A DNA stretch of 64,000 bases from Escherichia coli (GTDB lineage Bacteria > Pseudomonadota > Gammaproteobacteria > Enterobacterales > Enterobacteriaceae). A model generated the notes under the pieces. That model was not told the DNA's origin, did no database searches, and saw nothing but the letters and a program-made list of their open reading frames with translations. How positions within the stretch are numbered: the first letter of the stretch is position 1; every line of letters starts with the position of its first letter. The DNA is taken from assembly GCF_009931435.1 (NCBI RefSeq), contig NZ_CP043414.1; one strand, written 5' to 3'. Positions 12,317 through 46,392 of this stretch are shown here, piece by piece. The translations under genes were made by a program, and so were the position numbers.

Positions 12317-12535
12317 TTAACGTTCAATAATTTGCGAAACATCATCACGGTTAATTTGCATCGCGTTACCTTGCTGATCGTGATAACTCACCAGCCCGGT
12401 ATCATCATCAATTTCAGGTTTTCCATCGGTCAAAATCATACGGCCATCTTTGGTCGCCATGACGTAATCACTGGAACACCCGGAAACAGCAAACGCCAGT
12501 CCGACTGCAGAAATTATTACTGCCCATTTTTTCAT
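12317..12535 (-). CDS. ygdR: Small DUF903 lipoprotein
   Basis: 72 aa, signal peptide with lipobox VSGC; paralog of the ORF at 46165-46392. Confidence 0.8.
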
Positions 12536-12671
12536 CCGGTTATCCTCATTTGGCCCACCTATGATAATAGTCTGTTTATAAATGGACGTTATATATCTTG
12601 AAAGCAGGAAAATCTTAAATTGTGAGGCTAACAGGAGTGAGTACGCTCTCCTGCAGGAGAGCGTACGGATA

Positions 12672-13385
12672 TCAAAGTGGATTTTTTTTGTTGCGAATCA
12701 GGTTGAGGCTTTCAACCGCAATAGAGAAGAACATCGCGAAGTAGATGTAACCTTTCGGTACGTGGATGTCGAAACTTTCCAGAATCAGGGTAAAGCCCAC
12801 CAGAATCAGGAAAGAGAGCGCCAGCATTTTTACCGAAGGATGGCGTTCGACAAAATCACCAATGGAGCGCGCGGCAAACATCATCACGCCTACGGCAATC
12901 ACCACGGCTGCCATCATAATAAACAGGTGATCTGACAGACCCACAGCGGTAATCACCGAGTCGAGGCTGAAGATAATATCCAGCAGCATAATTTGCACGA
13001 TAGCGCCGAGGAATGATGAAACGCGTGATTTCAGCCCTTCTTCTTCACCTTCGATGGATTCGTGGATTTCCTTGCTGGCTTTCCAGATAAGGAACAAGCC
13101 ACCCAGAAGCAGAATCAAATCACGGGCGGAAATTTCCTGGCTGAATATTGTAAAAAGCGGATTTGTCAGGCGCGTAACCCAGGCGATTGATGCCAGCAGC
13201 GCCAGACGCATAACCATGGCTCCCGCCAACCCCAGACGCCGCGCATGAGCACGTTGTGCTGTGGGGAGCTTTGCCACCACCAGAGAAAGAAAAATAATAT
13301 TGTCGATCCCAAGAACGATCTCCAGCAGCGTCAGCGTACCGAGCGCAAGCCAGGCGTTAGGATCGGTTATCCATGCAAATAACAT
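12672..13385 (-). CDS. ygdQ: TerC-family inner membrane protein
   Basis: 237 aa polytopic membrane protein. Confidence 0.8.
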
Positions 13386-13453
13386 CTAAAAAGCCCTGCC
13401 AAAAAAATGAAGCGGTAATTATATGCCCGGAAAGCGGCAGGTCAAAGCGATGG

Positions 13454-14143
13454 CTACTGGATCAGAAAATGACGGGCCAGCAGCGCACTGGTGAAATTCT
13501 TCTTCAAATAAAAGCCACGCGGCAGCGTCAAAATCCGTTCGCCCCGGGCACCAATGGCTTCGGTAAGCGCTTTCGCATTCGCTGCTTTCGGGCGTATCTG
13601 TAAATACTCCCCGTGACGAGCGGTGATCCGCTCAACCTGACCGAGAACAATCATATCCATTAATTCTTCCCAGTCTTCGCGCAGTTGCCGGTCTTCCTCT
13701 TCATTCGGGCTCCATAGCAATGGTGATCCTACGCGACGCTGCGCCAGCGGGATGCTACGTTCGCCTTCAACCGGTATCCACAGCACGCGTTTGAGCTTGT
13801 GGCGCACGTGGCTGGTTTCCCAGGTCACTCCACTATTGCCCGTTAATGGGGCAACACAAACGAATGTTGTTTCCAGCGGACGCCCAAGACTATCCACAGG
13901 AATAGTTTTAAGTTCCACACCCAGAGCAGCAAAATCTTGTTCTGGTTTACTCCCTGCACTGGCACCTAGCCAGATCTCCAGCAACACGCCGATCCAGCCC
14001 TTATCGCGTTTTAAATTCTCCGGCGTCACCAGCCCGGCAAGTGCCGCCAGTTCACCCAGTGTATAACCGGAAAGTTGCTGTGCTTGCGCTAACAACTGTG
14101 CTTCTGTTTCGGGAGGAGAAAGCAGTGGGCGAGGTTGGGACAT
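13454..14143 (-). CDS. mutH: DNA mismatch repair endonuclease MutH
   Basis: 229 aa; recognised sequence. Confidence 0.95.
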
Positions 14144-14299
14144 GTCATGATACCTTGGTTAAAAAACAAACAGCTGTTCTTTGCCGAATATTCGCAGTGT
14201 AACTTTTTCCACATGCGTTATTCAATTCTATGATTTATATTGCTTTTTAGATTGTCGGTAATCGAGTTGCGCAACACTGCAACGGGTTTTCCAAATCTG

Positions 14300-14700
14300 G
14301 TCACTGAAAATAAACAGGATCTTACACCATGTTATCCACAGAAAGCTGGGATAACTGTGAAAAACCTCCACTACTGTTTCCATTTACAGCCTTGACGTGC
14401 GACGAAACTCCAGTTTTTAGTGGTTCAGTGCTTAACTTAGTGGCACATTCTGTGGATAAATACGGCGTTGGTTGATCTTTCGCCAACCTGTAAATGAGAG
14501 GTGTGACCTGGGTCACGAATTACTCCTTTTTATTACTTAAATTACATGTAATGCATTGACTAGTAATGATTATTTTAAAGTGTCGATATCAGGCTTATTC
14601 AGAATGCTCCGGGTTTTCCCGTAGTAATTCCGTAGTTCTTCACAACTCTATCCACAGAAAAGGTGAATAAAAACGGCTATCCACCCCTTCCTCTGTTTAT
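14300..14700. promoter_or_regulatory. DnaA-box cluster in the mutH-rppH intergenic region, consistent with DARS2
   Basis: Perfect DnaA boxes TTATCCACA at 14332-14340 (+) and TGTGGATAA at 14451-14459 (box on minus strand); near-consensus CTATCCACA at 14648-14656; AT-rich 684-bp non-coding region. Confidence 0.5.
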
Positions 14701-14827
14701 AACTCTGCACATAACTGTGAGTTATTCAATTGTTATTAGTGTGTAATGCCCTGCAGAGAGTGGTTTACCGTCTTCATGGAGTATGAAACAATCATTCGTA
14801 TATAAAGCTTTATTTTGAGGTAGTCCG

Positions 14828-15358: not shown

Positions 15359-15370
15359 GTCACGCCAATT

Positions 15371-17617: not shown

Positions 17618-17767
17618 CGCGGATCATATACATATCTTTTAACGGTATCCGGCAACCAGCCAGGTCCCCTTGTGCTATTATTCGCACCTTTGGAGCGCCT
17701 GAAACCTGCGGCGCGCATTTCAATCGCTGTTCTCTTTCAGCGAAATAACAAGAACTTGTGGTGACAG

Positions 17768-18643
17768 ATGACCAGTAGCTATCTGCATTTTCCGGAGTTT
17801 GATCCGGTCATTTTCTCAATAGGACCCGTAGCGCTTCACTGGTACGGCCTGATGTATCTGGTGGGTTTCATTTTTGCAATGTGGCTGGCAACACGTCGGG
17901 CGAATCGTCCGGGCAGCGGCTGGACCAAAAATGAAGTTGAAAACTTACTCTATGCGGGCTTCCTCGGCGTCTTCCTCGGTGGACGTATTGGTTATGTTCT
18001 GTTCTACAACTTCCCGCAGTTTATGGCCGATCCGCTGTATCTTTTCCGTGTCTGGGACGGCGGCATGTCCTTCCACGGCGGCCTGATTGGCGTTATCGTG
18101 GTGATGATTATCTTCGCCCGCCGTACTAAACGTTCCTTCTTCCAGGTTTCTGATTTTATCGCACCACTCATTCCGTTTGGTCTTGGTGCCGGGCGTCTGG
18201 GCAACTTTATTAACGGTGAATTGTGGGGCCGCGTTGACCCGAACTTCCCGTTTGCCATGCTGTTCCCCGGCTCCCGTACAGAAGATATTTTGCTGCTGCA
18301 AACCAACCCGCAGTGGCAATCCATTTTCGACACTTACGGTGTGCTGCCGCGCCACCCATCACAGCTTTACGAGCTGCTGCTGGAAGGTGTGGTGCTGTTT
18401 ATTATCCTCAACCTGTATATTCGTAAACCGCGCCCAATGGGAGCTGTCTCAGGTTTGTTCCTGATTGGCTACGGCGCGTTTCGCATCATTGTTGAGTTTT
18501 TCCGCCAGCCCGACGCGCAGTTTACTGGTGCCTGGGTGCAGTACATCAGCATGGGACAAATTCTTTCCATCCCGATGATTGTCGCGGGTGTGATCATGAT
18601 GGTCTGGGCATATCGTCGCAGCCCACAGCAACACGTTTCCTGA
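17768..18643 (+). CDS. lgt: Prolipoprotein diacylglyceryl transferase
   Basis: 291 aa membrane protein; recognised sequence. Confidence 0.95.
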
Positions 18644-18649
18644 GGAACC

Positions 18650-19444
18650 ATGAAACAGTATTTAGAACTGATGCAAAAAGTGCTCGACGAAGGCACACAG
18701 AAAAACGACCGTACCGGAACCGGAACGCTTTCCATTTTTGGTCATCAGATGCGTTTTAACCTGCAGGATGGATTCCCGCTGGTGACAACCAAACGTTGCC
18801 ACCTGCGTTCCATCATCCACGAACTGCTGTGGTTCTTGCAGGGCGACACAAACATTGCTTATCTACACGAAAACAATGTCACCATCTGGGACGAATGGGC
18901 CGATGAAAATGGCGACCTCGGTCCGGTGTATGGTAAACAGTGGCGTGCCTGGCCAACGCCAGATGGTCGTCATATTGACCAGATCACTACGGTACTGAAC
19001 CAGCTGAAAAACGACCCGGATTCCCGCCGCATTATTGTTTCAGCGTGGAACGTTGGTGAACTGGATAAAATGGCGCTGGCACCGTGCCATGCATTCTTCC
19101 AGTTCTATGTGGCAGACGGCAAACTCTCTTGCCAGCTTTATCAGCGCTCCTGTGACGTCTTCCTCGGCCTGCCATTTAACATTGCCAGCTATGCGTTACT
19201 GGTACATATGATGGCGCAGCAGTGCGATCTGGAAGTGGGTGATTTTGTCTGGACCGGTGGCGACACGCATCTGTACAGCAACCATATGGATCAAACTCAT
19301 CTGCAATTAAGCCGCGAACCGCGCCCGCTGCCGAAGCTGATTATCAAACGTAAACCTGAATCCATCTTCGACTACCGTTTCGAAGACTTTGAGATTGAAG
19401 GCTACGATCCGCATCCGGGCATTAAAGCGCCGGTGGCTATCTAA
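18650..19444 (+). CDS. thyA: Thymidylate synthase
   Basis: 264 aa; recognised sequence. Confidence 0.95.
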
Positions 19445-19465
19445 TTACGAAACATCCTGCCAGAG

Positions 19466-19493
19466 CCGACGCCAGTGTGCGTCGGTTTTTTTT
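19466..19493 (+). terminator. Rho-independent terminator downstream of thyA
   Basis: Hairpin ccgacgc-cagtgt-gcgtcgg followed by T8. Confidence 0.7.
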
Positions 19494-21365: not shown

Positions 21366-21377
21366 TCAGGAGCCGCT

Positions 21378-31345: not shown

Positions 31346-33171
31346 TGAAATTGCAAAAGCAATTACTGGAAGCTGTGGAGCACAAACAGCTACGCCCGCT
31401 GGATGTGCAATTTGCCCTGACCGTGGCGGGAGATGAACATCCTGCCGTCACCCTCGCGGCAGCCCTGTTAAGCCACGACGCCGGGGAAGGGCATGTCTGT
31501 TTGCCGCTCTCACGACTTGAGAACAACGAAGCCTCGCATCCACTGTTGGCGACCTGTGTCAATGAAATCGGTGAGCTACAAAACTGGGAAGAGTGCTTGC
31601 TGGCTTCACAAGCGGTCAGCCGGGGAGATGAACCAACGCCGATGATCCTCTGTGGCGATCGCCTTTATCTCAATCGCATGTGGTGTAACGAGCGCACAGT
31701 GGCACGCTTTTTCAACGAAGTGAATCATGCCATTGAGGTTGATGAAGCTCTACTGGCGCAAACCCTGGACAAACTTTTTCCAGTAAGCGATGAAATTAAC
31801 TGGCAAAAAGTGGCGGCGGCAGTGGCGCTGACGCGGCGGATCTCGGTGATTTCCGGCGGCCCTGGCACCGGTAAAACGACCACCGTAGCGAAGTTGCTGG
31901 CAGCGTTAATTCAAATGGCAGACGGCGAACGCTGCCGTATCCGTCTGGCTGCACCAACGGGTAAAGCTGCCGCGCGCTTAACCGAATCTCTCGGCAAGGC
32001 TTTGCGCCAGTTACCGCTGACCGATGAACAAAAGAAACGCATTCCGGAAGATGCCAGCACTTTGCACCGATTGCTGGGTGCGCAGCCGGGTAGCCAGCGT
32101 TTACGTCATCATGCCGGTAACCCGCTGCATCTTGATGTGCTGGTGGTAGATGAAGCGTCAATGATCGATCTGCCTATGATGTCGAGACTGATCGACGCCT
32201 TGCCCGATCATGCGCGAGTGATCTTTCTCGGCGATCGTGATCAACTGGCCTCGGTTGAGGCTGGGGCTGTGCTGGGCGATATCTGCGCTTATGCCAACGC
32301 GGGCTTTACCGCCGAGCGTGCCGGGCAGTTGAGCCGCCTGACGGGAACTCACGTTCCGTCAGGAACTGGCACAGAAGCGGCATCTTTGCGCGACAGTCTC
32401 TGCCTGCTGCAAAAAAGCTATCGTTTCGGCAGCGATTCTGGCATTGGTCAGTTAGCTGCGGCGATCAACCGTGGTGATAAAACGGCAGTGAAAACCGTTT
32501 TTCAGCAGGATTTTACTGATATCGAAAAACGGCTTTTACAGAGCGGCGAAGACTATATTGCGATGCTTGAGGAGGCTCTTGCGGGTTACGGGCGTTATCT
32601 GGATCTGCTGCAAGCGCGTGCCGAGCCGGATTTAATCATTCAGGCGTTCAATGAATACCAGCTTTTGTGCGCCCTGCGGGAAGGGCCGTTTGGCGTGGCT
32701 GGATTGAATGAGCGAATTGAGCAGTTTATGCAACAGAAGCGCAAAATTCATCGTCATCCGCACTCACGCTGGTACGAAGGCCGGCCGGTAATGATTGCCC
32801 GCAATGACAGCGCGCTTGGGTTGTTTAATGGTGATATCGGCATTGCGCTGGATCGTGGGCAGGGGACGCGCGTCTGGTTTGCGATGCCGGATGGCAATAT
32901 TAAGTCTGTGCAACCGAGCCGCCTGCCAGAACACGAAACCACGTGGGCGATGACGGTACATAAATCGCAGGGATCGGAGTTTGACCATGCTGCGTTGATT
33001 TTACCGAGCCAACGCACGCCAGTTGTAACGCGAGAGCTGGTTTACACTGCGGTGACCCGCGCGCGTCGCCGTCTGTCGTTGTATGCCGATGAGCGCATAT
33101 TAAGTGCGGCAATCGCCACTCGTACTGAGCGGCGCAGTGGTCTGGCGGCGTTGTTTAGTTCGCGGGAATAA
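31345..33171 (+). CDS. recD: Exodeoxyribonuclease V alpha subunit
   Basis: 608 aa, Walker [10 protein letters not shown]; start overlaps the recB stop by 1 nt. Confidence 0.95.
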
Positions 33172-33178
33172 ACGTGAT

Positions 33179-33286
33179 TGCCTGATGCGACGCATGCGCG
33201 TCCTGTCATGCCTCCGGGCATTGCGCATATGCGCATCTGGCGATTTCCGTCGCTTACCCTAAATCCGCCATCAACACCTTTGATTT
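33179..33286. repeat. Degenerate copy of the argA 3' end plus its 3' flank (copy 1 of an imperfect direct repeat)
   Basis: About 105 bp aligning at roughly 85 percent identity with 33338-33442; begins with REP-like cctgatgcgacgc. Confidence 0.6.
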
Positions 33287-33287
33287 G

Positions 33288-33324
<37 letters not shown>

Positions 33325-33337
33325 ATGAGCGTCAATA

Positions 33338-33442
33338 CCTGATGCGATGCTAGCGTGTTTATCATGCCTCCAGGCATTGCGCATGTCGCATCTGGCGATT
33401 TCCACCACTTACCCCAAATCCGCCATCAACACTTTGGATTTA
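33338..33442. repeat. Copy 2 of the direct repeat, overlapping the last ~11 codons of argA
   Basis: Pairs with 33179-33286; includes the argA C-terminal coding sequence KVLMADLG-stop. Confidence 0.6.
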
Positions 33443-34740
33443 CGCTGGTAGTTGTACAACTGCTTTTTGCTCTCGGGCAGTAAATCAATATCCACCGGGG
33501 TAAATCCACGTTCCTGGAACCAGTGAATACTGCGCGTGGTCAGTACAAACAATTTGCTTAATCCGCTTTGCTTCGCCTGAGCGGCAATGCGCTCCAGCAA
33601 AACCTCGCCCCTTGATGAGCTGCGGTAATCCGGGTGAACGGCCACACAGGCCATTTCCCCAATCTTCTCTTCCGGGAACGGATAGAGTGCTGCGCAGGCA
33701 ATAGTCGTGTTATCGCGCTGAATAATAGTGAATTTGTCGATTTCCATCTCCAGTTGCTCGCGAGAACGGCGTACCAGAATACCTTGCTGCTCCAGTGGGC
33801 GAATCAACTCCAGAATGCCGCCAATATCGTTGATGGTTGCGCGACGAATTTGCTCGGCGCTTTCCATCACAATCTGCGTACCGATACCGTCACGTGAGAA
33901 CAACTCTTGCAACAGCGCGCCATCTTCCTGGTAACTAATTAAATGACAGCGACGTACGCCGCTGCGGCAGGCTTTCACCGCACCACGCAAAAAGCGCACC
34001 GTACCGGAGTTGTAATCGCCTTTCTCTTCCTGAGCTTCTACCCGCGCTTGTGCTTCGTTAGGGAAAAGCTCGGAGACAATATCGCCGTCGTCATTAGTGA
34101 CGCCCTGTGAAGAGCAAAAACCAATCATCTTTTCAGCTTTCAGTTTGATGGCCAGTTGAGTGGCGATCTCTTCCGAGGTCAGATTAAAGCTCTCGCCAGT
34201 GACTGAAACCGCGACCGGCCCCAGCAGCACTATCGCACCGCTGTCCAGTTGACGATGAATCGCATCTTCGTCAATCCGCCGGATACGCCCGCTATGGCAG
34301 TAATCCACACCGTCATCCACGCCCAGCGGCTGGGCAATAATAAAATTGCCACTGACGACGTTGATATGCGCGCCCTGCAGCGGCGTGTTATTGAGACTCA
34401 TCGACAGGCGAGCAGTAATGTCCAGTTGCAATGTTCCCGCAGCCTGCTTCACCAGTTCTAGTGTTTTGGCGTCGGTCACGCGTATATTTTTGTGATATAG
34501 CGGTTCGTGGTGATGCGCTGCCAGATTCGCATCGATCTGCGGGCGCGCTCCATAGACCACGACCAGACGGATGCCGAGGCTGTGCAGCAACCCGATATCA
34601 TTAACGATACTGGAGAAATTCTCATGCTCAATGGCTTCACCGCCGAGCATGATGACAAACGTTTTTCCCCGGTGGGTATTGATATAAGGAACCGAATGGC
34701 GGAATCCCTCGACCAACTCGGTTTTACGTTCCTTCATCAC
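33409..34740 (-). CDS. argA: N-acetylglutamate synthase
   Basis: About 443 aa; start taken as GTG at 34738-34740 (an ATG one codon downstream is the alternative); AAK and GNAT domains. Confidence 0.9.
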
Positions 34741-34970
34741 GGCACACCTCTTTGCATGATTATTCGTAATTATTGTATTTTTATTCTGTTTTTTCACTGG
34801 GTGCAAGTGCAAATTTTACGCATGAGCAACTTTTTTATCAGTAATGCCGTGAATATAAAAAGAATGTTTACCGTTTATTAGATGACAGATTATGCGTCTT
34901 TCGCTAAAGTTTCCGGTCAAATTAGTCGTTTATTTGTTACACAGCTTAGATTTTTTTGCTCGGGAGATGC

Positions 34971-36224
34971 ATGTCGGGATCCAACACAGCAATCAGCCGT
35001 CGTCGTTTACTGCAAGGCGCGGGTGCCATGTGGCTATTGAGCGTAAGTCAGGTCAGTCTGGCTGCGGTCAGCCAGGTCGTGGCGGTGCGCGTCTGGCCTG
35101 CGTCCAGCTACACCCGTGTGACGGTAGAATCTAATCGTCAGCTGAAATATAAGCAGTTCGCGTTGAGTAACCCTGAACGCGTGGTGGTGGATATCGAAGA
35201 TGTAAACCTGAACTCAGTGCTCAAGGGGATGGCGGCACAAATTCGTGCTGATGACCCGTTCATCAAGTCGGCGCGCGTCGGGCAGTTTGACCCGCAAACC
35301 GTGCGGATGGTTTTTGAGTTAAAGCAAAACGTAAAACCGCAGCTGTTTGCCCTTGCTCCGGTCGCCGGGTTTAAAGAGCGTCTGGTGATGGATCTCTATC
35401 CTGCCAATGCTCAGGACATGCAGGACCCGCTGCTGGCGCTGCTGGAGGATTACAATAAAGGCGATCTCGAAAAGCAGGTGCCGCCTGCGCAGAGTGGCCC
35501 GCAGCCAGGCAAAGCAGGGCGCGATCGTCCGATTGTCATTATGCTTGACCCTGGCCATGGCGGCGAAGACTCCGGTGCGGTGGGGAAATACAAAACGCGT
35601 GAAAAAGACGTGGTATTGCAAATTGCCCGCCGTTTGCGCTCTCTGATTGAGAAAGAGGGCAATATGAAAGTTTACATGACCCGTAATGAAGACATCTTCA
35701 TTCCGTTGCAAGTGCGCGTAGCAAAAGCACAGAAACAGCGTGCTGACTTGTTTGTCTCTATTCATGCCGATGCCTTTACCAGTCGCCAGCCGAGCGGTTC
35801 ATCTGTGTTTGCGCTCTCTACCAAAGGTGCAACCAGTACCGCGGCAAAATATCTGGCGCAAACTCAGAACGCCTCGGACTTGATTGGTGGCGTGAGTAAG
35901 AGCGGCGACCGTTATGTCGACCATACTATGTTCGATATGGTGCAGTCGCTGACCATTGCCGACAGTCTGAAGTTTGGTAAAGCTGTGTTGAATAAGCTCG
36001 GTAAAATCAACAAGCTGCATAAAAATCAGGTTGAACAAGCCGGGTTTGCCGTGCTGAAAGCGCCTGATATACCCTCCATTTTGGTCGAAACGGCGTTTAT
36101 CAGTAACGTTGAGGAAGAACGTAAACTGAAAACGGCAACCTTCCAGCAGGAAGTTGCGGAATCAATCCTCGCAGGAATAAAAGCGTATTTTGCCGATGGG
36201 GCGACGCTGGCGAGAAGGGGATAA
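34971..36224 (+). CDS. amiC: N-acetylmuramoyl-L-alanine amidase AmiC
   Basis: 417 aa from the ATG at 34971 (RBS gggag); Tat signal [11 protein letters not shown]; amidase_3 domain. Confidence 0.9.
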
Positions 36225-36321
36225 TGTTTTTATTTATTCAATGAATTTATATTTCGTTGAATAGATAATATTTACCTGAATATTAGACGTTGGTTTTGTG
36301 ACTGATGTCGAATATTTGAAT

Positions 36322-36344
36322 GTCGGCTTGAAAAATAAGCCGAC
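36322..36344. other. Hairpin about 100 bp downstream of amiC
   Basis: Perfect 8-bp inverted repeat gtcggctt-gaaaaat-aagccgac; no U-tract. Confidence 0.3.
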
Positions 36345-36395
36345 CATCTCTTTAATTAAGCACAATTCCGTGTAATGTATATGCATTAGTTAATC

Positions 36396-36470
36396 ATCTT
36401 GTAACTGTTAAATCAGGCAAGGCAATGTTTGAAGTAATTATTACTTCTGACGTGCCTTGCCTTTTTTTTT
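36396..36470 (+). promoter_or_regulatory. RAT-like element overlapping a Rho-independent terminator (BglG/SacY-type antitermination leader)
   Basis: cttgtaactgttaaatcaggcaaggca resembles RAT sequences as I recall them; its 3' half forms the 5' arm of the hairpin caggcaaggca...tgccttgcc, followed by T9, just upstream of the antiterminator RBS. Confidence 0.55.
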
Positions 36471-36481
36471 GGAGCTATGGA

Positions 36482-37306
36482 ATGATCATCGAAAAAGTCA
36501 TGAACAATAATTGTGTACAGGCATCGATGAATGGACAGGAGGTTATCATTTCTGGGCCTGGCGTCGGTTACAACAAAAAATATGGAATGTCGGTCCCTGA
36601 GCATCCGGCTAACCGGATTTTTTATGTCAGAAATGAACAAAAAAATAAACTCTACAAATTGATTGAACATGTGGATATTGAGTATGTTTTTGTTGCCGAA
36701 AAAATAGTGCAATATGCAGAGAACAATCTCGAAAAAAATCTCAATCCATCGCTACTATTGATTCTTGCTGATCACATTTCGAATGCAATATCCCGAGTCG
36801 CTTCAGGCATACAAATTAATAATGTTTTCCTTGATGAAATCAAAGCGTTGTACAAAGCAGAGTATGCGATAAGTCGCGATGCATTAACTATCATTAATGA
36901 GCAATTTAGCGTTCAACTTCCTGATGATGAGATTGGTTTTATAGCATTGCATATTTTAAATAATTATGAAAATTCAGTTGATTATGAATCAGTACGGATT
37001 ATTGAGTTGTCGCAAATAATCACGGGGCTTATTGAAGTTGTTTATAACAGAAAGGTGGACAGAAGTTCATTTAATTATTCCAGGTTCATGATACACCTTA
37101 AATATTTTTCAAGTCGCGTATTATGCAATGAAAAAATAAAACAGAAAGATATTGGTGATCTCTATGAACAGTTTCTTGAGAAAGACATTCTGTTACAGCG
37201 CGCAATTCATGAAATTGAAAGGTATTTGTACGCCACTTTTAAATATGAATTGATTTTGGAAGAAAAACTATATCTCTCTATTCGCACCAAAGTATTAATG
37301 GACTAA
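36482..37306 (+). CDS. BglG/LicT-family transcription antiterminator (CAT RNA-binding domain + two PRDs)
   Basis: 274 aa from the ATG at 36482 (RBS ggag 8 nt upstream); N-terminal KVMNNNCV...GQEVIISGPGVGY matches the CAT domain; PRD-like histidine contexts; the ORF-track start at 36425 lies inside the terminator loop. Confidence 0.8.
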   Translation: MIIEKVMNNNCVQASMNGQEVIISGPGVGYNKKYGMSVPEHPANRIFYVRNEQKNKLYKLIEHVDIEYVFVAEKIVQYAENNLEKNLNPSLLLILADHISNAISRVASGIQINNVFLDEIKALYKAEYAISRDALTIINEQFSVQLPDDEIGFIALHILNNYENSVDYESVRIIELSQIITGLIEVVYNRKVDRSSFNYSRFMIHLKYFSSRVLCNEKIKQKDIGDLYEQFLEKDILLQRAIHEIERYLYATFKYELILEEKLYLSIRTKVLMD

Positions 37307-37337
37307 TTATATATAACATTTATATGAGATAACCCGC

Positions 37338-38918
37338 ATGAAACAAAAGAAAGCCTGGAGTTTTTTTCAGAGCCTGGGAAAGGCATTTATGTATCCCATC
37401 GCTCTGCTAAGTGTATGTGGCATGATGTTAGGGCTAGGAAGTGGTTTAGCCAGCGATGATATGGCAAAATTAATTCCACTACTGGCTATTCCCGTAATTA
37501 AAACCATTCTTGATTTTATTGTTAGCCTTGGTTTGTTTGCCTTTGTCAATTTACCTGTATTGTTTGCGATAGCTATACCTCTGGGGTTATTAAAAGAGAA
37601 AGAGGATAAAGCCTATGGCGCTTTTTCTGGCTTAATTGGTTTCATGGCGATGCATCTGGGAACGAACTTTTATCTTAAACAACATGACTTATTGGTCGCT
37701 GCTGATCAAATGTCGACACATGGGCAAACCATTATTCTGGGAATCCAGTCCTACAATACCAGTGTGTTGGGTGGGATTATAGCAGGATTATTAGTCGCCA
37801 GTATGTATAAAAAGATCGTTAACTTACGTATTCCTGAATCATTAGGATTTTATAGTGGCCCACGCCTGGTGCCTATTATTACACTGATTGTGATGAGTGG
37901 ATTTGGTCTGATCATCCCTTTTATCTGGCCGCCATTTTTCAATCTTTTCATGCTCATTGGCCACTGGATTTCAACTTCCGGTCCTGTTGGCTATTTTTTC
38001 TATGCAGTCGCCGAACGCGTGACGATACCTTTTGGTTTAAATCACCTGGTGACGTCAGTTTTCCGCTTTACCCCCATCGGCGGATCGGCAGTGATCGGCG
38101 GCGAAGAGTATTATGGCACCCTGAACATGTTTATGGCGTACGTCAAAGAGAATGCGGTCATTCCGCTGGATTTGGCGGGGAAAATGGAACAGGGCAAACT
38201 GATGATTCAGTATGGTCTGGCTGGTGCCGCGCTGGCGATGTATCGCACTGCTCATGCTCAAAACAGAAAAGCTATCAAAGCATTGCTTATTTCCGGGGTG
38301 CTTACAGTCATTATTGGCGGCGTCAGCGAACCGATTGAGTTTCTGTTCTTATTTGTCAGTCCACTGCTGTTTGTCTTCCATGCCTTTATGAATGGATTCG
38401 CCAACATGGTCTTGCCATATATGGGCGTGAAGATGGGATTTACTGGCGATCTGATTCAATTTATTAGCTTTGGCGTATTGCGTGGCACAAGAACAGGTTG
38501 GCCAATAGCGGTGTGTGTCGAAGTGGCCTATTTCTTTATTTATTACTTTGTGTTCCGTTGGACTATTCTCAAATTTAACCTGATGACGGTAGGCCGTGAA
38601 GAGTCCAGTCCTGTCACGCTGAACGCTCATGAGGATACGGCTATAGCGGATATCCCAACGCTTGATAAATCAGAGCTGCAAGCAGCGGAGCAGATGGTTA
38701 AGGCACTTGGTGGTAAAGAGAATATTAAATCCCTGGATAATTGCGTAACTCGTTTACGTTTAACAATCGCAGATATGGGATTGATTGACGAGGCAGCAAT
38801 AAAAAGAGCTGGCGGAATTGCGGTTGTTAAACTTGATCAAAATACCCTACAAGTCATTATCGGTACTAAAGTCATCGCCTTGCGTCGGGATATGGATAAC
38901 TACATGGGGATATGCTGA
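37338..38918 (+). CDS. PTS glucose-family EIICB component (no EIIA domain)
   Basis: 526 aa; multi-TM EIIC followed by C-terminal EIIB with cysteine motif LDNCVTRLRL. Confidence 0.85.
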   Translation: MKQKKAWSFFQSLGKAFMYPIALLSVCGMMLGLGSGLASDDMAKLIPLLAIPVIKTILDFIVSLGLFAFVNLPVLFAIAIPLGLLKEKEDKAYGAFSGLIGFMAMHLGTNFYLKQHDLLVAADQMSTHGQTIILGIQSYNTSVLGGIIAGLLVASMYKKIVNLRIPESLGFYSGPRLVPIITLIVMSGFGLIIPFIWPPFFNLFMLIGHWISTSGPVGYFFYAVAERVTIPFGLNHLVTSVFRFTPIGGSAVIGGEEYYGTLNMFMAYVKENAVIPLDLAGKMEQGKLMIQYGLAGAALAMYRTAHAQNRKAIKALLISGVLTVIIGGVSEPIEFLFLFVSPLLFVFHAFMNGFANMVLPYMGVKMGFTGDLIQFISFGVLRGTRTGWPIAVCVEVAYFFIYYFVFRWTILKFNLMTVGREESSPVTLNAHEDTAIADIPTLDKSELQAAEQMVKALGGKENIKSLDNCVTRLRLTIADMGLIDEAAIKRAGGIAVVKLDQNTLQVIIGTKVIALRRDMDNYMGIC

Positions 38919-40093
38919 TGGATGTTTTTAATACTCCTATTTCCCGCAAAGGAACATATTGTACCCAATGGGACTTTTGCGAGGACAGATTTGGTGTAAA
39001 AGATGTATTACCATTCTCTATTTCAGATATGGATCTTCCGATACCGGAAGCTATCATCAGGGCATTAAAAAAACGTCTGGAACACCCGATTTTAGGGTAC
39101 AGCCGTTGGCAGCATGATGACTATCTGAATGCGATAGTCAATTGGTATCATCAACAATATAAAACTGAAATCAAACCAGAATGGATCACCTATAGCCCAA
39201 GCGTGATGTACTCCATTGCTAAAGCAATAGAGTTATTGACATCGCATGGTGATAATATTCTCGTTTTTACACCTGTCTATAATGCATTTTTTGATATAAT
39301 TAAACATAGCGAGAGAAATATTCTGACAGCCTCTTTGATTATAAAAAATGAGGGGGGCTACGCTATCAATTGGCAAGATTTTGATCTTAAGATTCAAAGC
39401 GCAAAGATGGTGTTATTATGTAATCCTCATAACCCGACAGGAACCGTCTGGTCGGAAGAAGATCTGCATAAAATCGCTGCAAGCTGTGCAAGACATAATG
39501 TCTGGTTATGTTCAGATGAAATTCACAGTGATTTTGTTTTTAATCGTAGCTTTACATCTGCGCTTAAAATAAAAAAAGAAAAAGTAGTGGTGTTTAATTC
39601 GATATCGAAGACATTTAATGTTCCTGCGCTAACAGGATCGTATATGATTTCAACTGACGATAATTTTAATCATGAGTTCAGAACGATATCAAGATATCGC
39701 GATTTTGTAAACTCCCCATCCGTACTGAATATAATTGCAACTATTATTGCCTATAACGAATGTGAGGGATGGTTAACGTCATTAAAGGCACATATTGCCT
39801 CTAACATTCAATTCACCCAGCAGTATCTGAACGAAAATACTCCAGAATTGATCGTAAGGCCTGCTGATGGTTGCTATTTTTCGTGGATAGATTGCTCTGC
39901 TATTGGTTATCCCTTTGATGAATTCTACAGTCGATTAATTCATGAAGGCAAAGTGGGCATTATGGCGGGGAATGTCTATGGAACGGAGGGGGAGGGCTAC
40001 CTTCGTCTGAACCTGGCCTGCGGTCGAGAAAAATTATATATGGGGCTTACGCGTCTTGCGAGTGTAATTAAAAATATTAATCAAGGAAAATAA
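38912..40093 (+). CDS. MalY/PatB-family PLP-dependent C-S beta-lyase (class I/II aminotransferase fold)
   Basis: 393 aa; TYCTQWDF...DRFG N-terminal motif and PLP lysine context SISKTFNVPALTG; 7-bp overlap with the PTS gene. Confidence 0.85.
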   Translation: MLMDVFNTPISRKGTYCTQWDFCEDRFGVKDVLPFSISDMDLPIPEAIIRALKKRLEHPILGYSRWQHDDYLNAIVNWYHQQYKTEIKPEWITYSPSVMYSIAKAIELLTSHGDNILVFTPVYNAFFDIIKHSERNILTASLIIKNEGGYAINWQDFDLKIQSAKMVLLCNPHNPTGTVWSEEDLHKIAASCARHNVWLCSDEIHSDFVFNRSFTSALKIKKEKVVVFNSISKTFNVPALTGSYMISTDDNFNHEFRTISRYRDFVNSPSVLNIIATIIAYNECEGWLTSLKAHIASNIQFTQQYLNENTPELIVRPADGCYFSWIDCSAIGYPFDEFYSRLIHEGKVGIMAGNVYGTEGEGYLRLNLACGREKLYMGLTRLASVIKNINQGK

Positions 40094-40095
40094 AA

Positions 40096-40692
40096 ATGAA
40101 CAGCACGGATCTTATCCATCTCATTAAACATTTTATGCGTAACGAACATAAAGCAGTTGAAGAAGTTATTGATTCCCCCCTTTCGGAGGTCGCAAATTTA
40201 ATTAAAGTATTACAGTCTTGTCAGGGGAAAGTTGTTTTTATTGGTGTCGGTAAGTCCGGTATTATTGCCCGAAAACTCGCCGCAACATTTGCCAGCACTG
40301 GAACTCCCTCGTTTTTTGTTCACGGTACTGAAGCCGTACACGGCGATCTTGGGATGGTGGCGAAAGATGATGTTGTTATTCTTATTTCAAACAGTGGTGA
40401 GACGACAGAAATCCTGGCAACACTACCTAGTCTGAAAAAAATGGGTAATTATTTGATCTCCTTTACCCGCAGTCATCGCTCATCGCTTGCGATAAGTTGT
40501 GATTTATCCGTTGAAATTCCCGTAAAAAGTGAGGCGGATAATTTAGGTTTAGCGCCGTCATGCTCATCAACAGTCGTTCTGGTTGTTGGTGATGCGGTGG
40601 CGCTTGCGCTCTCCGAATTGAAAAAGTTTACTCGTGCTGATTTCGGCTTATATCATCCAGGAGGTGCGCTCGGTATTAAAGCAAACTCATAA
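40096..40692 (+). CDS. Single SIS-domain phosphosugar isomerase, arabinose-5-phosphate isomerase-like, lacking CBS domains
   Basis: 198 aa; GVGKSGIIARKLAATFASTGTPSFFVH and SNSGET motifs resemble the KpsF/GutQ SIS domain; no CBS pair. Confidence 0.8.
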   Translation: MNSTDLIHLIKHFMRNEHKAVEEVIDSPLSEVANLIKVLQSCQGKVVFIGVGKSGIIARKLAATFASTGTPSFFVHGTEAVHGDLGMVAKDDVVILISNSGETTEILATLPSLKKMGNYLISFTRSHRSSLAISCDLSVEIPVKSEADNLGLAPSCSSTVVLVVGDAVALALSELKKFTRADFGLYHPGGALGIKANS

Positions 40693-40762
40693 TTTTAGAA
40701 TATAAAACAGTAACCGGTCACGCCATCTTTTGGGGTGGCGTTCATTGATGTGAGTGTCAGCT

Positions 40763-41710
40763 ATGAAAAACGTTCTGGTCACCGTTCCCAGCTTTTCAGC
40801 GCGTTGTGTTTCTGCCAGCAAGCTGCTAAGAGAAAATCATTTTAACCTTATTATCAAGAATAATGTGGAGCATCTGGTTAAATCAGAATCCACAGTATTA
40901 CGAGAATCTATTTGCGCAGTCATTGCCGGAAAAGATTGTTATCAAGCGGATACGTTATCGCGACTACCAGGAGTGAAAATAATATCGAGATTCGGGACAG
41001 GGATTGATAATATTGATCTTCATACGGCTCGACAATCAGGTATTGTGGTCAATAATGCTGTTGGGATTAATTCAAATGCAGTCGCGGAATTTATCATTGG
41101 TCTTATTTTTGCGAGCATGAGAAATATCCCCGGTAGCTATCATGCGATGCAAAATGGTTATTGGGGCGAGTCGCATGGCTGCGAGTTACAAGGTAAACGT
41201 ATTGGCCTGCTTGGCTACGGCAATATTGGCAAAACACTGGCGAAAAGGTTATCTGGTTTTGATGTTGAGCTTTTAGCTTTTGACAAACAACCCGATTTCC
41301 AGGCCGCAGGCAAAGATGGAGTTCAGTTCGTATCAATTGAAGATATCTTTATGCAGTCTCATGTCATCATCGTTCTTTTGCCATTTTCTCCGGAGCTGGA
41401 GAACTTCATTAGTCATAAATATTTGTCGATGATGCGCAATGGTGCTCTTATCATCAACGCCGCAAGGGGAAAGTTGCTGGATGAGGGTGCTTTACTTCAG
41501 GTAATTGAAGAACGAAATGTTTTTGCAGCGCTGGATGTGTTTAGCTCTGAACCGCTAGCGCAATTTAGCCCATTGCTACATGCCAGGAATATCATTACAA
41601 CGCCGCATATTGCGGCCGCCACCGTTGAGTCATACCAGCAAACCGGGATATACGTTGCCAGGTCGATAATAGATTTCTTTGCAGGAAGGGAGATAAAAAA
41701 CGTGCTGTGA
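40763..41710 (+). CDS. D-isomer-specific 2-hydroxyacid dehydrogenase family protein (NAD-binding)
   Basis: About 315 aa from the ATG at 40763 (a GTG at 40754 is possible); GxGxxG motif GLLGYGNIGKTLAKRL; C-terminal catalytic His region TPHIAAAT. Confidence 0.8.
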   Translation: MKNVLVTVPSFSARCVSASKLLRENHFNLIIKNNVEHLVKSESTVLRESICAVIAGKDCYQADTLSRLPGVKIISRFGTGIDNIDLHTARQSGIVVNNAVGINSNAVAEFIIGLIFASMRNIPGSYHAMQNGYWGESHGCELQGKRIGLLGYGNIGKTLAKRLSGFDVELLAFDKQPDFQAAGKDGVQFVSIEDIFMQSHVIIVLLPFSPELENFISHKYLSMMRNGALIINAARGKLLDEGALLQVIEERNVFAALDVFSSEPLAQFSPLLHARNIITTPHIAAATVESYQQTGIYVARSIIDFFAGREIKNVL

Positions 41711-41736
41711 GTTCAGCTAAGGAAGATTTCAGGTAC

Positions 41737-41770
41737 AAAAAAACCGCAATTTGTGAAACACATTGCGGTT
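41737..41770 (-). terminator. Rho-independent terminator of the tRNA-fMet operon (minus strand)
   Basis: On the minus strand, hairpin aaaccgcaatgtgtttcacaaattgcggttt followed by T7. Confidence 0.6.
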
Positions 41771-41788
41771 TATCAGCATCATAAGTGT

Positions 41789-41865
<77 letters not shown>

Positions 41866-41898
41866 TCACCGTACTGCTTTACTTCATCAAATTTTGAT

Positions 41899-41975
<77 letters not shown>

Positions 41976-42008
41976 TCACCGTACTGCTTTACTTCATCAA
42001 ATTTTAAT

Positions 42009-42085
<77 letters not shown>

Positions 42086-42293
42086 TCCGTGGATGCGCAC
42101 TATACTCCGCTCGCGTTTTCATGCAACCTTTTTTTTACCCAGATCACGGATTTGGTATGATTTTGAGCAAAAACAAATCACTAAAGCCTGTTTTTTGTGC
42201 AAAATTTGCGTCAGGGAGAGGCTGCTCATTTCATTAAACGCAGCGGTTTGTTATCTTCATTGCGCCTTATTTTTTAAACTGAAGAAGAGAACA

Positions 42294-43391
42294 ATGAAAG
42301 GACGTTGGGTAAAGTACCTTCTTATGGGCACGGTTGTGGCAATGCTTGCCGCCTGCTCTTCCAAACCAACCGATCGCGGACAGCAATATAAAGACGGGAA
42401 ATTTACCCAGCCTTTCTCTCTGGTAAACCAGCCAGATGCCGTTGGCGCGCCAATTAACGCCGGTGATTTTGCCGAGCAAATTAACCATATCCGTACTTCG
42501 TCACCGCGTCTGTATGGCAACCAGAGTAATGTTTATAATGCGGTGCAGGAGTGGCTACGCGCAGGCGGTGATACCCGCAATATGCGTCAGTTCGGCATTG
42601 ACGCCTGGCAGATGGAAGGTGCCGACAACTATGGCAACGTGCAGTTTACGGGCTATTACACGCCTGTCATTCAGGCGCGCCATACCCGTCAGGGCGAGTT
42701 CCAGTATCCTATTTACCGTATGCCGCCAAAACGTGGTCGTCTGCCGTCTCGTGCGGAGATCTACGCGGGAGCATTGAGCGATAAATACATCCTCGCTTAC
42801 AGCAACTCTCTGATGGATAACTTCATTATGGATGTGCAGGGTAGCGGGTATATCGATTTTGGTGATGGCAGTCCGCTTAACTTCTTCAGCTATGCCGGAA
42901 AGAATGGTCATGCCTATCGCAGTATTGGTAAGGTGCTGATTGACCGTGGCGAAGTGAAAAAAGAAGATATGTCGATGCAGGCGATTCGTCACTGGGGTGA
43001 AACACACAGTGAAGCCGAGGTTCGCGAGCTGCTGGAACAGAACCCGTCTTTCGTCTTCTTTAAACCGCAATCTTTTGCTCCGGTGAAAGGGGCAAGTGCG
43101 GTGCCGCTGGTTGGTCGCGCTTCAGTTGCGTCCGATCGTTCCATTATCCCGCCTGGTACAACCTTACTGGCAGAAGTGCCGCTGCTGGATAATAACGGCA
43201 AATTTAACGGTCAGTACGAACTGCGGCTGATGGTGGCGCTGGATGTCGGTGGTGCAATCAAAGGCCAACACTTCGATATTTATCAAGGTATCGGGCCGGA
43301 AGCCGGACACCGCGCAGGTTGGTACAACCACTATGGACGTGTTTGGGTGCTGAAAACCGCCCCGGGCGCAGGTAACGTCTTTAGCGGCTGA
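42294..43391 (+). CDS. mltA: Membrane-bound lytic murein transglycosylase A (lipoprotein)
   Basis: 365 aa from the ATG at 42294; signal peptide with lipobox LAACSS; the longer ORF-track start at 42012 would read through the tRNA genes. Confidence 0.9.
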   Translation: MKGRWVKYLLMGTVVAMLAACSSKPTDRGQQYKDGKFTQPFSLVNQPDAVGAPINAGDFAEQINHIRTSSPRLYGNQSNVYNAVQEWLRAGGDTRNMRQFGIDAWQMEGADNYGNVQFTGYYTPVIQARHTRQGEFQYPIYRMPPKRGRLPSRAEIYAGALSDKYILAYSNSLMDNFIMDVQGSGYIDFGDGSPLNFFSYAGKNGHAYRSIGKVLIDRGEVKKEDMSMQAIRHWGETHSEAEVRELLEQNPSFVFFKPQSFAPVKGASAVPLVGRASVASDRSIIPPGTTLLAEVPLLDNNGKFNGQYELRLMVALDVGGAIKGQHFDIYQGIGPEAGHRAGWYNHYGRVWVLKTAPGAGNVFSG

Positions 43392-43467
43392 TGTGTTATT
43401 CTGTATACCGTTTTGACGGATACGACAGGGTGAGGGATAACCTCGCCCTTTTTAATTCTGAGGTGCT

Positions 43468-44274
43468 ATGTCTGTGGTAATTAGTGATGCATGGCGTCAG
43501 CGTTTTGGTGGCACTGCGCGTCTGTATGGTGAAAAAGCGTTGCAACTGTTTGCTGATGCGCATATTTGTGTGGTCGGTATCGGTGGCGTTGGTTCCTGGG
43601 CGGCGGAAGCGCTGGCGCGCACGGGTATTGGCGCAATCACACTTATCGATATGGATGATGTGTGCGTCACTAATACCAATCGGCAAATTCACGCGCTGCG
43701 AGATAACGTCGGGCTGGCCAAAGCGGAAGTCATGGCCGAACGTATTCGCCAGATTAACCCGGAGTGCCGTGTAACGGTGGTGGATGACTTCGTGACGCCG
43801 GATAACGTAGCGCAATATATGAGTGCCGGTTATTCGTACGTGATTGATGCCATTGATAGTGTGCGACCCAAAGCGGCGCTGATTGCTTATTGTCGGCGCA
43901 ACAAAATCCCTCTGGTCACGACTGGTGGTGCTGGTGGGCAGATTGATCCGACGCAGATTCAGGTTACCGATCTGGCGAAAACGATTCAGGACCCGCTGGC
44001 GGCGAAGTTGCGCGAGCGCCTGAAAAGCGATTTTGGCGTAGTGAAAAACAGCAAAGGTAAGCTCGGCGTGGATTGCGTGTTCTCTACCGAAGCGCTGGTG
44101 TACCCGCAGTCAGACGGTACGGTGTGCGCGATGAAAGCCACGGCAGAAGGGCCGAAGCGGATGGATTGTGCATCTGGATTTGGTGCGGCGACGATGGTGA
44201 CCGCCACCTTTGGTTTTGTTGCGGTTTCTCATGCGTTGAAGAAGATGATGGCGAAAGCGGCGCGTCAGGGGTAA
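43468..44274 (+). CDS. tcdA: tRNA threonylcarbamoyladenosine dehydratase (E1-like)
   Basis: 268 aa; ThiF/MoeB-like motif VVGIGGVGSWAAEALARTGIG. Confidence 0.9.
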   Translation: MSVVISDAWRQRFGGTARLYGEKALQLFADAHICVVGIGGVGSWAAEALARTGIGAITLIDMDDVCVTNTNRQIHALRDNVGLAKAEVMAERIRQINPECRVTVVDDFVTPDNVAQYMSAGYSYVIDAIDSVRPKAALIAYCRRNKIPLVTTGGAGGQIDPTQIQVTDLAKTIQDPLAAKLRERLKSDFGVVKNSKGKLGVDCVFSTEALVYPQSDGTVCAMKATAEGPKRMDCASGFGAATMVTATFGFVAVSHALKKMMAKAARQG

Positions 44275-44278
44275 ACAA

Positions 44279-44313
44279 TCAGGTCGGATGCGACGCGAAC
44301 GTCTTATCCGACC
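44279..44313. repeat. REP-like palindrome between convergent tcdA and csdE
   Basis: caggtcggatgcgacgcgaacgtcttatccgacctg. Confidence 0.5.
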
Positions 44314-44324
44314 TGGTTTTGTGC

Positions 44325-44768
44325 TTAACCCTGCTTTGCCGCCGCGATAATCGCCTCGCTTAACGCATTCAACCCCTGACTGCGAGAGGCGCTAAGTTGC
44401 GCACGCAATCCCAGCTCATCAAACAATGCCAGCGGCGACTGTGCTTGCAATTCGGCGGCGGTTTTCCCCTCAACGGCAGTCAACAACACCGCCAGCAGGC
44501 CGCGCACAATGCGTCCTTCGCTGTCGCCAAAGAAATGCATCGTGCCGTTTTCAGCCACGGTATATCCCAGCCAGACGCGGTTTTCGCATCCGGCGATCTC
44601 TTTAGCCTGCGCTTTTAACTCGTCTGGCAAAGCTGGAAGCTGTTTCCCCAACATAATTAGCTGACGATATTTGTCTTCCCATTGAGTCAACGGCGCGAAA
44701 GTTTCGTGTAACGTCTTTACGGTAACGGTTGTGCCGAACGGATGTCCGGCGTATTGCGGGTTCGTCAT
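44325..44768 (-). CDS. csdE: Sulfur acceptor protein (SufE-like)
   Basis: 147 aa; adjacent to and overlapping csdA. Confidence 0.9.
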
Positions 44769-45973
44769 TAATCCACCAATAATTCCAGCGCACGGTCAAC
44801 GGCATTCACCAGCGCATCTACATCACTCTTTGTATTATATGGCGCAAAAGAGGCGCGCAGTGTGCCGGTTACGCCTAATTCTGCCAGTAGCGGCTGAGCG
44901 CAATGCTGCCCGGCCCGCAGGGCAATGCCGTACTCTGCCAACAGCGTCACCATATCGCTGTGATGAACGCCAGCAAAATCAAAGGCCAGCAGGCTGGAAT
45001 CCTGGCAGCGGAATGAACGAAAGCCTGGACGTTTCGCCAGCGCTTCTTCTGCCAGCGTTGCTAAGCTACGGCTCCAGCTTTCGGCCTGGTTGATATCATA
45101 ATCTGCCAGCCATTCCAGCGCCGCGCTTAATCCTATGACACCAGCGACATTTGGCGTTCCAGCTTCCAGTTTCCACGGCGCAGATTGAGTCGTGAAGCCG
45201 TCAAAACTCACTTCGTGAACCATTTTGCCGCCGCCCAGCCAGGGCGACATCGCTTCCAGCAGTTCTGATTTGCCATACAGCACGCCGATACCTGTCGGGC
45301 CATACAGTTTGTGACCTGAAAAAGCATAGAAATCAATATCCAGTTGCTGAACATCCGCGGGGAAATGCACCGCCCCCTGAGCACCATCAACCATCACCAC
45401 CATCCCGGCTGAATGAGCAAAGGTAATCGCTCGCGCCAGATCCGGGCAACCGCCAGTAACGTTCGACATCTGACCCAACGCCAGAATCCGACTATGGGGA
45501 GTAATCAGTTCAGGCAACAAATCGATATCTGGCAACCGCTGCGCATTAAGCGGCAATTTCAGCACTTTGGCTCCGGTTTGTTGGGCGACCATCAGCCAGG
45601 GGACGAGGTTGGCGTGATGCTCTGCCACACTGACAATAATTTCATCGCCCGGTTGCAGACGCGGACGCGCATAGCATTGCGCCACCATGTTGATGGATTC
45701 AGTGGTGCCACGCGTCCAGACGATAGTTTTGTCATCTGGTGCATTCAGTAATTGCGCCACTTTTTCCCGTGCAGCTTCGTAACGCGCGGTCAGGCGTTGG
45801 GCCTCGGCAAACTGGCTACGATGGACGTTTCCGGCGCTCAGGCTGTAAAACTGTCGGGTTGCTTCAACCACGGCTTCAGGTTTAAGCGCGGTCGCGGCAC
45901 TGTCGAGATAGACGCCCGCATCCTGTAGCGCGGGAAACTGGGCGCGAAATTGCGCGGGATTAAAAACGTTCAT
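44768..45973 (-). CDS. csdA: Cysteine desulfurase / cysteine sulfinate desulfinase (PLP)
   Basis: 401 aa from the ATG at 45973; class V aminotransferase, PLP lysine context SGHKLYGP. Confidence 0.9.
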
Positions 45974-46164
45974 GGTACTCCTCGGCTTGATGCACCGATC
46001 GTGACGCAAAATTCACTTTGATACAAGGAGAGTGCTAACCATCAGAATTATCTGGATATCCTGGCGAAGCCGCGTAAGTAACATATGCTAAATAGTGTTA
46101 GGCGTTAATTTTAGCCTGTTAATCAATACTATTAAGATTTATTAATCGCTTTAAGGAGAAGATG

Positions 46165-46392
46165 ATGAAAAAGACTGCCGCAATTATTTCTGCCTGTATG
46201 CTGACTTTTGCCCTGAGCGCCTGTTCCGGTTCGAACTATGTGATGCACACCAATGACGGACGTACCATCGTCTCTGACGGCAAACCACAGACTGATAACG
46301 ATACCGGTATGATTTCGTATAAAGACGCTAATGGCAACAAACAGCAGATCAACCGTACCGACGTGAAAGAGATGGTCGAACTGGATCAGTAA
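46165..46392 (+). CDS. ygdI: Small DUF903 lipoprotein
   Basis: 75 aa, lipobox LSAC; paralog of ygdR. Confidence 0.8.

Follow-up and report, generated by a model that had tools for sequence, protein, structure and literature searches.

Ancient DUF903 Lipoprotein Paralogs YgdR and YgdI of Escherichia coli and Their Possible Role in Envelope Stress

Two DUF903 Genes in the E. coli Chromosome

From sequence inspection, a stretch of 64,000 nucleotides of Escherichia coli DNA (RefSeq assembly GCF_009931435.1, contig NZ_CP043414.1; the window hereafter) had been proposed to encode two paralogous lipoproteins of the DUF903 family, YgdR and YgdI, lying about 34 kb apart and representing an old duplication of unknown function. 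The window belongs to the E. coli chromosome, and its ygdR region was matched by 5424 of 5426 complete genomes at 95-99.6% identity. The ygdR coding sequence (CDS) lies at 12317..12535 on the minus strand and encodes a prolipoprotein of 72 amino acids with a mature part of 52-53 amino acids, as established by translation, hidden Markov models (HMMs), identity to a PDB entry and RefSeq. The ygdI CDS, at 46165..46392 on the plus strand, encodes a prolipoprotein of 75 amino acids according to its translation, HMMs and the RefSeq annotation. Both open reading frames (ORFs) appear in the mechanical ORF list and are closed by stop codons, so that the positions, strands and product lengths of the original prediction proved exact, stops included. 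For ygdI, an in-frame ATG one codon further 5' (46162) would give a product of 76 amino acids, while the annotation starts at 46165. The names ygdR and ygdI are those given by RefSeq to these ORFs in the best-matching strain and in K-12.

Assignment to the family was clear for both products. YgdR and YgdI scored 85.9 and 83.9 bits, respectively, with the Pfam model of DUF903, PF06004 (cut-off 27), and 105.9 and 113.2 bits with NCBIfam NF033216, 'YgdI/YgdR family lipoprotein' (lipo_YgdI_YgdR; cut-off 42). Residues 21-72 of YgdR are 100% identical to the chain 'lipoprotein YgdR' of PDB 2JN0/3FIF. When the two proteins were aligned by BLASTP, 43 of 72 positions were identical (60%) with a single gap of one residue and an E-value of 1e-31; in the mature core, 29 of 50 residues were identical, and the Smith-Waterman score of 166 compared with 25 +/- 5 for 2000 shuffled sequences (z = 27). 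The similarity is thus highly significant, and the conserved core that had been predicted, DGR.I..DGKP..D.DTG...Y.D..GN..QINR.DV, fits both proteins. A six-frame search revealed no third DUF903 copy in the window, and a full E. coli chromosome mislabelled among plasmid records carried DUF903 at two places only.

The genes correspond to b2809 and b2833 of K-12, members of the YgdI/YgdR family: mature YgdR is that of the E. coli structure in PDB and the K-12 gene order is kept, the sole substantive difference being an accessory island of 5.3 kb between ygdR and ygdI in the present strain. The genes, their membership of DUF903 and their mutual relatedness are already recorded in Pfam, NCBIfam, RefSeq and PDB, and nothing is new in this respect.

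Age of the Two Copies

At the nucleotide level, the two CDSs share 59% identity, which falls to 35% at third codon positions. By the method of Nei and Gojobori (NG86), the rate of nonsynonymous substitutions (dN) was 0.38 and that of synonymous substitutions (dS) was saturated and therefore undefined. The copies are on opposite strands, and no similarity was detected outside the CDSs when 1 kb on each side was compared. Orthologues of YgdR (83-100% identity) and of YgdI (77-100% identity) occur in the same genera of Enterobacteriaceae, sometimes on one contig; both were found in Citrobacter, Enterobacter, Kosakonia, Trabulsiella, Pluralibacter, Phytobacter and Kluyvera, and also in Escherichia albertii.

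Homologue searches with YgdR and YgdI gave almost only close orthologues. Since all 80 loci from the scanned genomes were of the YgdR type, the split could not be dated directly from them, and contigs encoding divergent representatives were used instead. In this strain and in K-12, ygdR is found in the order mutH-ygdQ-ygdR-tas and ygdI in the order csdA/ygdI-gcvB-gcvA. The first context was kept throughout the 80 Enterobacteriaceae species, all of which have mutH upstream and tas downstream of ygdR on the same strand (ygdQ being kept in 68 of them). It was also recognised in Rouxiella (Yersiniaceae), where a YgdR-type gene of 72 codons lies within lgt-ptsP-rppH/mutH-ygdR...tas, and in Musicola paradisiaca (Pectobacteriaceae), which has mutH-ygdQ-ygdR-tas and a YgdR-type product with 55% identity. 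The second context was found in a genome of the Erwiniaceae, with a YgdI-type gene in mltA-tcdA-csdE-csdA/ygdI(-gcvB)-gcvA-ygdD-rlmM, and around a YgdI relative of 59% identity with the same mltA-tcdA-csdE-csdA/ygdI order, on a short contig that ends just past ygdI. Because both contexts are kept in several families of Enterobacterales, these gene orders indicate that ygdR and ygdI separated before Enterobacteriaceae, Yersiniaceae, Pectobacteriaceae and Erwiniaceae diverged from one another. The age ascribed to the duplication was therefore borne out by the saturated dS, the dissimilar flanks and the conservation of both neighbourhoods. Very probably, ygdR and ygdI belong to the core chromosome of E. 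coli as real, expressed-type genes and are ancient paralogs encoding DUF903 prolipoproteins, and their identity together with their ancient paralogy is near certain.

The TerC-family gene ygdQ is missing between mutH and ygdR in 12 of the 80 species, among them Leclercia, Lelliottia, some Enterobacter and Silvania (loci L030, L032, L036, L040, L043, L048 and six others), and mutH and tas are kept there.

Selective Constraint

The dN/dS ratio of ygdR was 0.01-0.04 in comparisons with E. albertii, Citrobacter, Salmonella, Klebsiella, Buttiauxella and Pluralibacter, and the YgdR protein of this E. coli is identical to that of Citrobacter amalonaticus at a dS of 1.2. These values indicate that ygdR is under strong purifying selection. 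When the orthologue sets of YgdR and YgdI were compared, 20 positions of the mature domain were conserved to at least 90% with the same residue in both sets, and seven positions were fixed differently, four of them consecutively in the last strand (S67K, Q68E, I69M and I70V). YgdR carries a net charge of -6 and YgdI one of -3. DUF903 is a small family: when 1.84 billion representatives were scanned exhaustively with HMMER, no more than 262 clusters, including many fragments, were obtained at E <= 0.001, and named members extend to Erwiniaceae, Pectobacteriaceae, Yersiniaceae and the betaproteobacterium Niveibacterium.

Lipoprotein Features and Fold

Both N-termini consist of MKK, a hydrophobic stretch and a lipobox fitting [LVI][ASTVI][GAS]C, followed by a +2 residue other than Asp. 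As read off the sequence, the lipobox codons of ygdR (V17-S18-G19-C20, with Ser at +2) are at 12476..12487 on the minus strand and those of ygdI (L17-S18-A19-C20, also with Ser at +2) at 46213..46224 on the plus strand; the lipobox that the two proteins had been said to share is thus present in each, with the cysteine at position 20. This cysteine was invariant in a family alignment of 49 sequences. In lipoprotein maturation, Lgt diacylglycerylates the lipobox Cys, LspA cuts the signal peptide and Lnt N-acylates the Cys, and a non-Asp residue at +2 leads in E. coli to sorting by the Lol system to the inner leaflet of the outer membrane. Such sorting agrees with the published handling of YgdI, which was used as an outer-membrane lipoprotein and cargo of outer-membrane vesicles (PMC8284480) and entered as a 'verified lipoprotein' (PMC8767339).

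An AlphaFold2 model built on the same family alignment (predicted local distance difference test score, pLDDT, 86.6) comprises the signal-peptide helix and six short strands, the first of which starts at residue 23, three residues past the lipidated Cys. The strands form a single small beta-barrel of about 50 residues, Sm-like (Hfq-like) as in solved DUF903 members. Six other members of the family have solved structures, and the PDB entries contain 6-8 chains, which is no guide to the assembly in solution. DUF903 shares this fold with Sm, LSm and Hfq proteins (SCOP b.38.1), although the identity in structural alignments is only 6-19%, neither YgdR nor YgdI matched a Sm or Hfq Pfam model at E <= 0.01, and a published survey doubts the homology of DUF903 with Sm proteins. 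In contrast to Sm, LSm and Hfq, YgdR and YgdI are marked for export by a signal peptide and anchored by a lipid, and would be periplasmic, where RNA binding of the Sm type is implausible. For these reasons, they were not filed as Sm proteins.

Regulation of ygdR and ygdI

Published transcriptomic data describe both genes as responsive to envelope stress. ygdI is RpoS-dependent in Salmonella and E. coli (PMC5437024, PMC6153362), lowered in a cpxRA mutant of Citrobacter rodentium (PMC6153362) and induced by ampicillin (PMC8865558). An inhibitor of LolCDE raised ygdI 25-53-fold and ygdR 8-12-fold, and a gene comment in the same work lists ygdR as Rcs-induced upon cell-wall damage (PMC5105897). 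Acid shift and cathelicidin led to a modest rise of both genes in published expression data. OsmB, OsmE, Slp, YbaY and MliC resemble YgdR and YgdI in their lipobox, small size, control by RpoS and/or Rcs and co-induction under Lol inhibition; however, their folds and families are unrelated to DUF903, and for MliC, unlike DUF903, the target is known (lysozyme).

About 82 nt before the ygdR ATG, at 12604..12617 on the minus strand, there is a box, TAAGATTTTCCTGC, which resembles the RcsB box. Its consensus is TAAGAttTT(a/c)CTGC, and a relaxed form was present in 75 of 84 Enterobacterales upstream regions orthologous to that of ygdR, compared with about 10 expected from shuffles. Compared with the published RcsB box, TN(G/A)GAN4TC(T/C)NA (PMC7913699), the TAAGAttTTaCTGC element, found in 75/84 regions at about -82 from the ATG, agrees at 8 of the 10 specified positions. 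From these motif data, RcsB is only inferred as a putative regulator acting at this box. A second conserved block (GTTATTACT...AGACTAT) follows downstream of the RcsB-box-like element. Upstream of ygdI, a sigma-S-like -10 element (CAATACT) was noticed by eye only, and it remains an unverified lead.

Directly 3' of the ygdR stop codon, a consensus scan identified a hairpin resembling an intrinsic terminator (12288..12312, minus strand), with a stem of 10 pairs and a T-rich tail. The small RNA (sRNA) SroC comes from the gltI transcript; the 3' part of ygdR mRNA has also been named as its origin in one report (PMC12803456). At the gathering threshold, Rfam gave no match at or beside ygdR in the window.

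DUF903 Genes on Plasmids

DUF903 genes were also carried by 368 plasmid records, 265 of which are typed as mobilizable, and the encoded proteins are true members of the family (53-65 bits with the Pfam model). Besides rop and one hypothetical gene, a plasmid of 2,495 bp from Enterobacter contains nothing but a DUF903 gene (L083, 2181-2408). In a Col plasmid of 4,096 bp from Salmonella, two adjacent DUF903 genes of different subtypes lie beside MbeD/MbeB/MobC (L084, 1342-1575 and 1597-1824), and the same two-gene cassette, with 91% and 85% identity, is present on a 394-kb plasmid of Pantoea (L094, 4992-5225 and 5239-5466). The products of the cassette are like YgdI and YgdR in family, size and lipobox and are 44-65% identical to them, but they constitute two further subtypes, encoded by adjacent genes that move between genera, whereas the chromosomal genes are unlinked (28-34 kb apart, on opposite strands) and vertically inherited. 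On a Serratia plasmid, the DUF903 copy lies amid general stress genes of the katE, csbD and yqjK type. Carriage by phages was considered and rejected: the matching phage records were mislabelled chromosomal sequences or short fragments.

Possible Function of YgdR and YgdI

DUF903 proteins are very small and very tightly conserved; several of their structures have been solved, and their induction reaches up to 50-fold upon failure of lipoprotein sorting. In the databases and literature surveyed, the function of YgdR and YgdI is still unknown, as the original prediction had stated. Once lipidated at Cys20 by Lgt, LspA and Lnt, both proteins would travel through Lol to the outer membrane and reside in its inner leaflet. 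Since the first strand begins only three residues after the anchor, the barrel is expected to sit right on the membrane surface, where it would be out of reach of the peptidoglycan, and such a near-absent tether suggests that the partner belongs to the outer membrane or lies at it, not in the peptidoglycan. YgdR and YgdI may then be small acidic binding modules which, under envelope stress, dock on a conserved partner close to the outer membrane. Published transcriptomics connects the genes to separate stress circuits, ygdI to RpoS and Cpx and ygdR to Rcs, and both copies would have been retained mainly by regulatory subfunctionalisation, in addition to the divergence of the C-terminal strand. 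We propose only tentatively that YgdR and YgdI are acidic envelope-stress binding modules, both of which have been maintained because their regulation and their edge strands diverged. Knowing their binding partners would close a small gap in the map of envelope stress in Gram-negative bacteria, and the tandem cassette on plasmids offers a second handle on the function of DUF903.

Several points weigh against this proposal. To our knowledge, neither a binding partner nor a phenotype or biochemical activity has been described for YgdR or YgdI, and it is only from their anatomy and regulation that we infer the binding-module mechanism. The strict RcsB box was found in none of the 84 orthologous ygdR upstream regions, and an alignment of the regions upstream of ygdI, which came from few and distant loci and were too diverged, gave no conserved promoter element and no sigma-S call. 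With regard to the origin of the copies, a neighbour-joining (NJ) tree of the 50-residue mature domain, constructed after frameshifted and chimeric fragments among the 50%-cluster representatives had been filtered out, was poorly resolved and placed the Musicola orthologue, as defined by synteny, outside the YgdR clade; due to this weak resolution, sequence phylogeny alone offers no basis for dating the split. The data fit duplication in situ and ancient acquisition of a homologue alike.

Instead of dividing labour, YgdR and YgdI might be redundant back-ups that persist through dosage, with a slight cost of losing either. The 20 positions that are invariant in both orthologue sets would be expected in this case, the same LolCDE inhibitor induces both genes (PMC5105897), and no phenotype of a single gene is reported in the literature surveyed. 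However, seven positions are fixed differently, the net charges differ (-6 versus -3), and so do the reported regulators. Furthermore, the saturated dS and the order-wide synteny imply a persistence over which redundancy would rarely be stable, and we consider this explanation unlikely.

The coexistence of two copies could also be the result of transfer, if one of them, more likely ygdI, had entered the ancestral Enterobacterales chromosome from a mobile element, so that the genes would be xenologs. DUF903 genes are mobile today, as seen in the 368 plasmid records (265 mobilizable), which include Col-type plasmids of 2.5-4.4 kb, and in the cassette shared at 91% and 85% identity by the Salmonella Col plasmid and the 394-kb Pantoea plasmid. 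By both the NJ tree and the identity matrix, YgdI has a nearer relative in the plasmid 'TRTSYAIHTNDG' type (64-65%) than in YgdR (57%), and the opposite strands and dissimilar flanks of the chromosomal copies are in line with an independent arrival. Nevertheless, transfer from chromosome to plasmid gives the same pattern, a tree built on a domain of 50 residues resolves little, and the synteny of both loci over several Enterobacterales families would make the transfer as old as the duplication it replaces. Such an origin is, in our opinion, quite improbable.

In analogy to MliC, Ivy, the colicin M immunity protein and the immunity lipoproteins of type VI secretion systems (T6SS), DUF903 lipoproteins such as YgdR and YgdI might be periplasmic inhibitors or immunity-type proteins directed against envelope-attacking enzymes or toxins. 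Lol inhibition induces ygdI and ygdR along with mliC and ivy (PMC5105897), DUF903 members travel as cargo of small Col-type plasmids, and a DUF903 orthologue group correlates with the presence of T6SS in Serratia (PMC12165300). On the other hand, the search for defence and phage families returned no PADLOC hits and no match to an annotated PHROG family, the only PHROGs signals being weak signal-peptide matches to families of unknown function, and no toxin gene adjoins either locus in the window. Moreover, dN/dS ratios of 0.01-0.04 and the identity of the E. coli and Citrobacter proteins at a dS of 1.2 are unlike those of immunity proteins engaged in an arms race. For the chromosomal pair, a role of this kind therefore appears very doubtful.

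A more speculative idea is that DUF903 proteins of different subtypes pair up, forming hetero-oligomers that lie flat against the outer membrane on its periplasmic side. It arises from the recurrence of pairs, an Sm-like fold prone to edge-to-edge oligomerisation, the scant tether and the fixed differences in the C-terminal edge strand, and we regard it as a long shot. There is an equally slim chance that the chromosomal YgdI/YgdR pair and the tandem type-A/type-B cassette of plasmids are versions of one two-component module, which would perhaps protect or gate an outer-membrane component under envelope stress or during the entry of plasmids or toxins. Finally, a chance similarity, or ORFs that are not genes, can be dismissed as practically impossible, since no supporting point was found and this explanation was refuted by the alignment (E 1e-31; z = 27 over shuffles), HMM scores three to four times the curated cut-offs, a solved structure of identical sequence, strong purifying selection and the experimental detection of the proteins (PMC8284480, PMC5437024).

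Neighbouring Genes and the Accessory Island

The distance between ygdR and ygdI is 33.6 kb in the window, matching the predicted spacing of about 34 kb, and 28.1 kb in K-12. This difference is due to the 5.3-kb accessory cluster (36425..41710, plus strand), which was delimited from ORFs and the annotation of the best-matching strain and lies between amiC and metZWV, the three genes for initiator tRNA-Met. It encodes a PRD protein, a phosphotransferase system (PTS) EIIC component, a MalY/PatB-type enzyme, a KpsF/GutQ-like isomerase and a frameshifted phosphoglycerate dehydrogenase. The cluster is not present in K-12, and at least 80% of the window from 33000 to 48000 was covered in 551 of 5426 E. 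coli genomes (about 10%).

On the other side of ygdI, the gene for the GcvB sRNA (46409..46614, minus strand; Rfam RF00022, 199 bits), with its terminator hairpin at 46416-46437, is convergent with ygdI, and its 3' end is only 16 nt past the ygdI stop codon. K-12 and distant relatives (L091, L092) have kept this layout. In an experiment of transposon-directed insertion-site sequencing (TraDIS; PMC8767339), insertions in ygdI as well as in hfq were advantageous in trimethoprim and sulfamethoxazole. Because gcvB is so close, this advantage may be a polar effect on gcvB/gcvA and not an effect of YgdI itself.

Genes of lipoprotein maturation and of the repair of its by-product are found in the vicinity of ygdR: lgt, at about 17750-18650 (from L001, 25869-26744), lies between ygdR and ygdI, and aas-lplT, at about 7900-11140, is near ygdR. 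Lgt serves lipoprotein maturation, and aas-lplT recycle the lysophospholipid produced by Lnt. The linkage lgt-ptsP-rppH/mutH-ygdR is retained in Rouxiella (L085). The closeness of these maturation and repair genes to ygdR may be coincidental. The tandem sRNA genes OmrA (5600-5681) and OmrB (5797-5884), both on the plus strand and with Rfam scores of 86 and 97 bits, respectively, are located between aas and galR, as in K-12.

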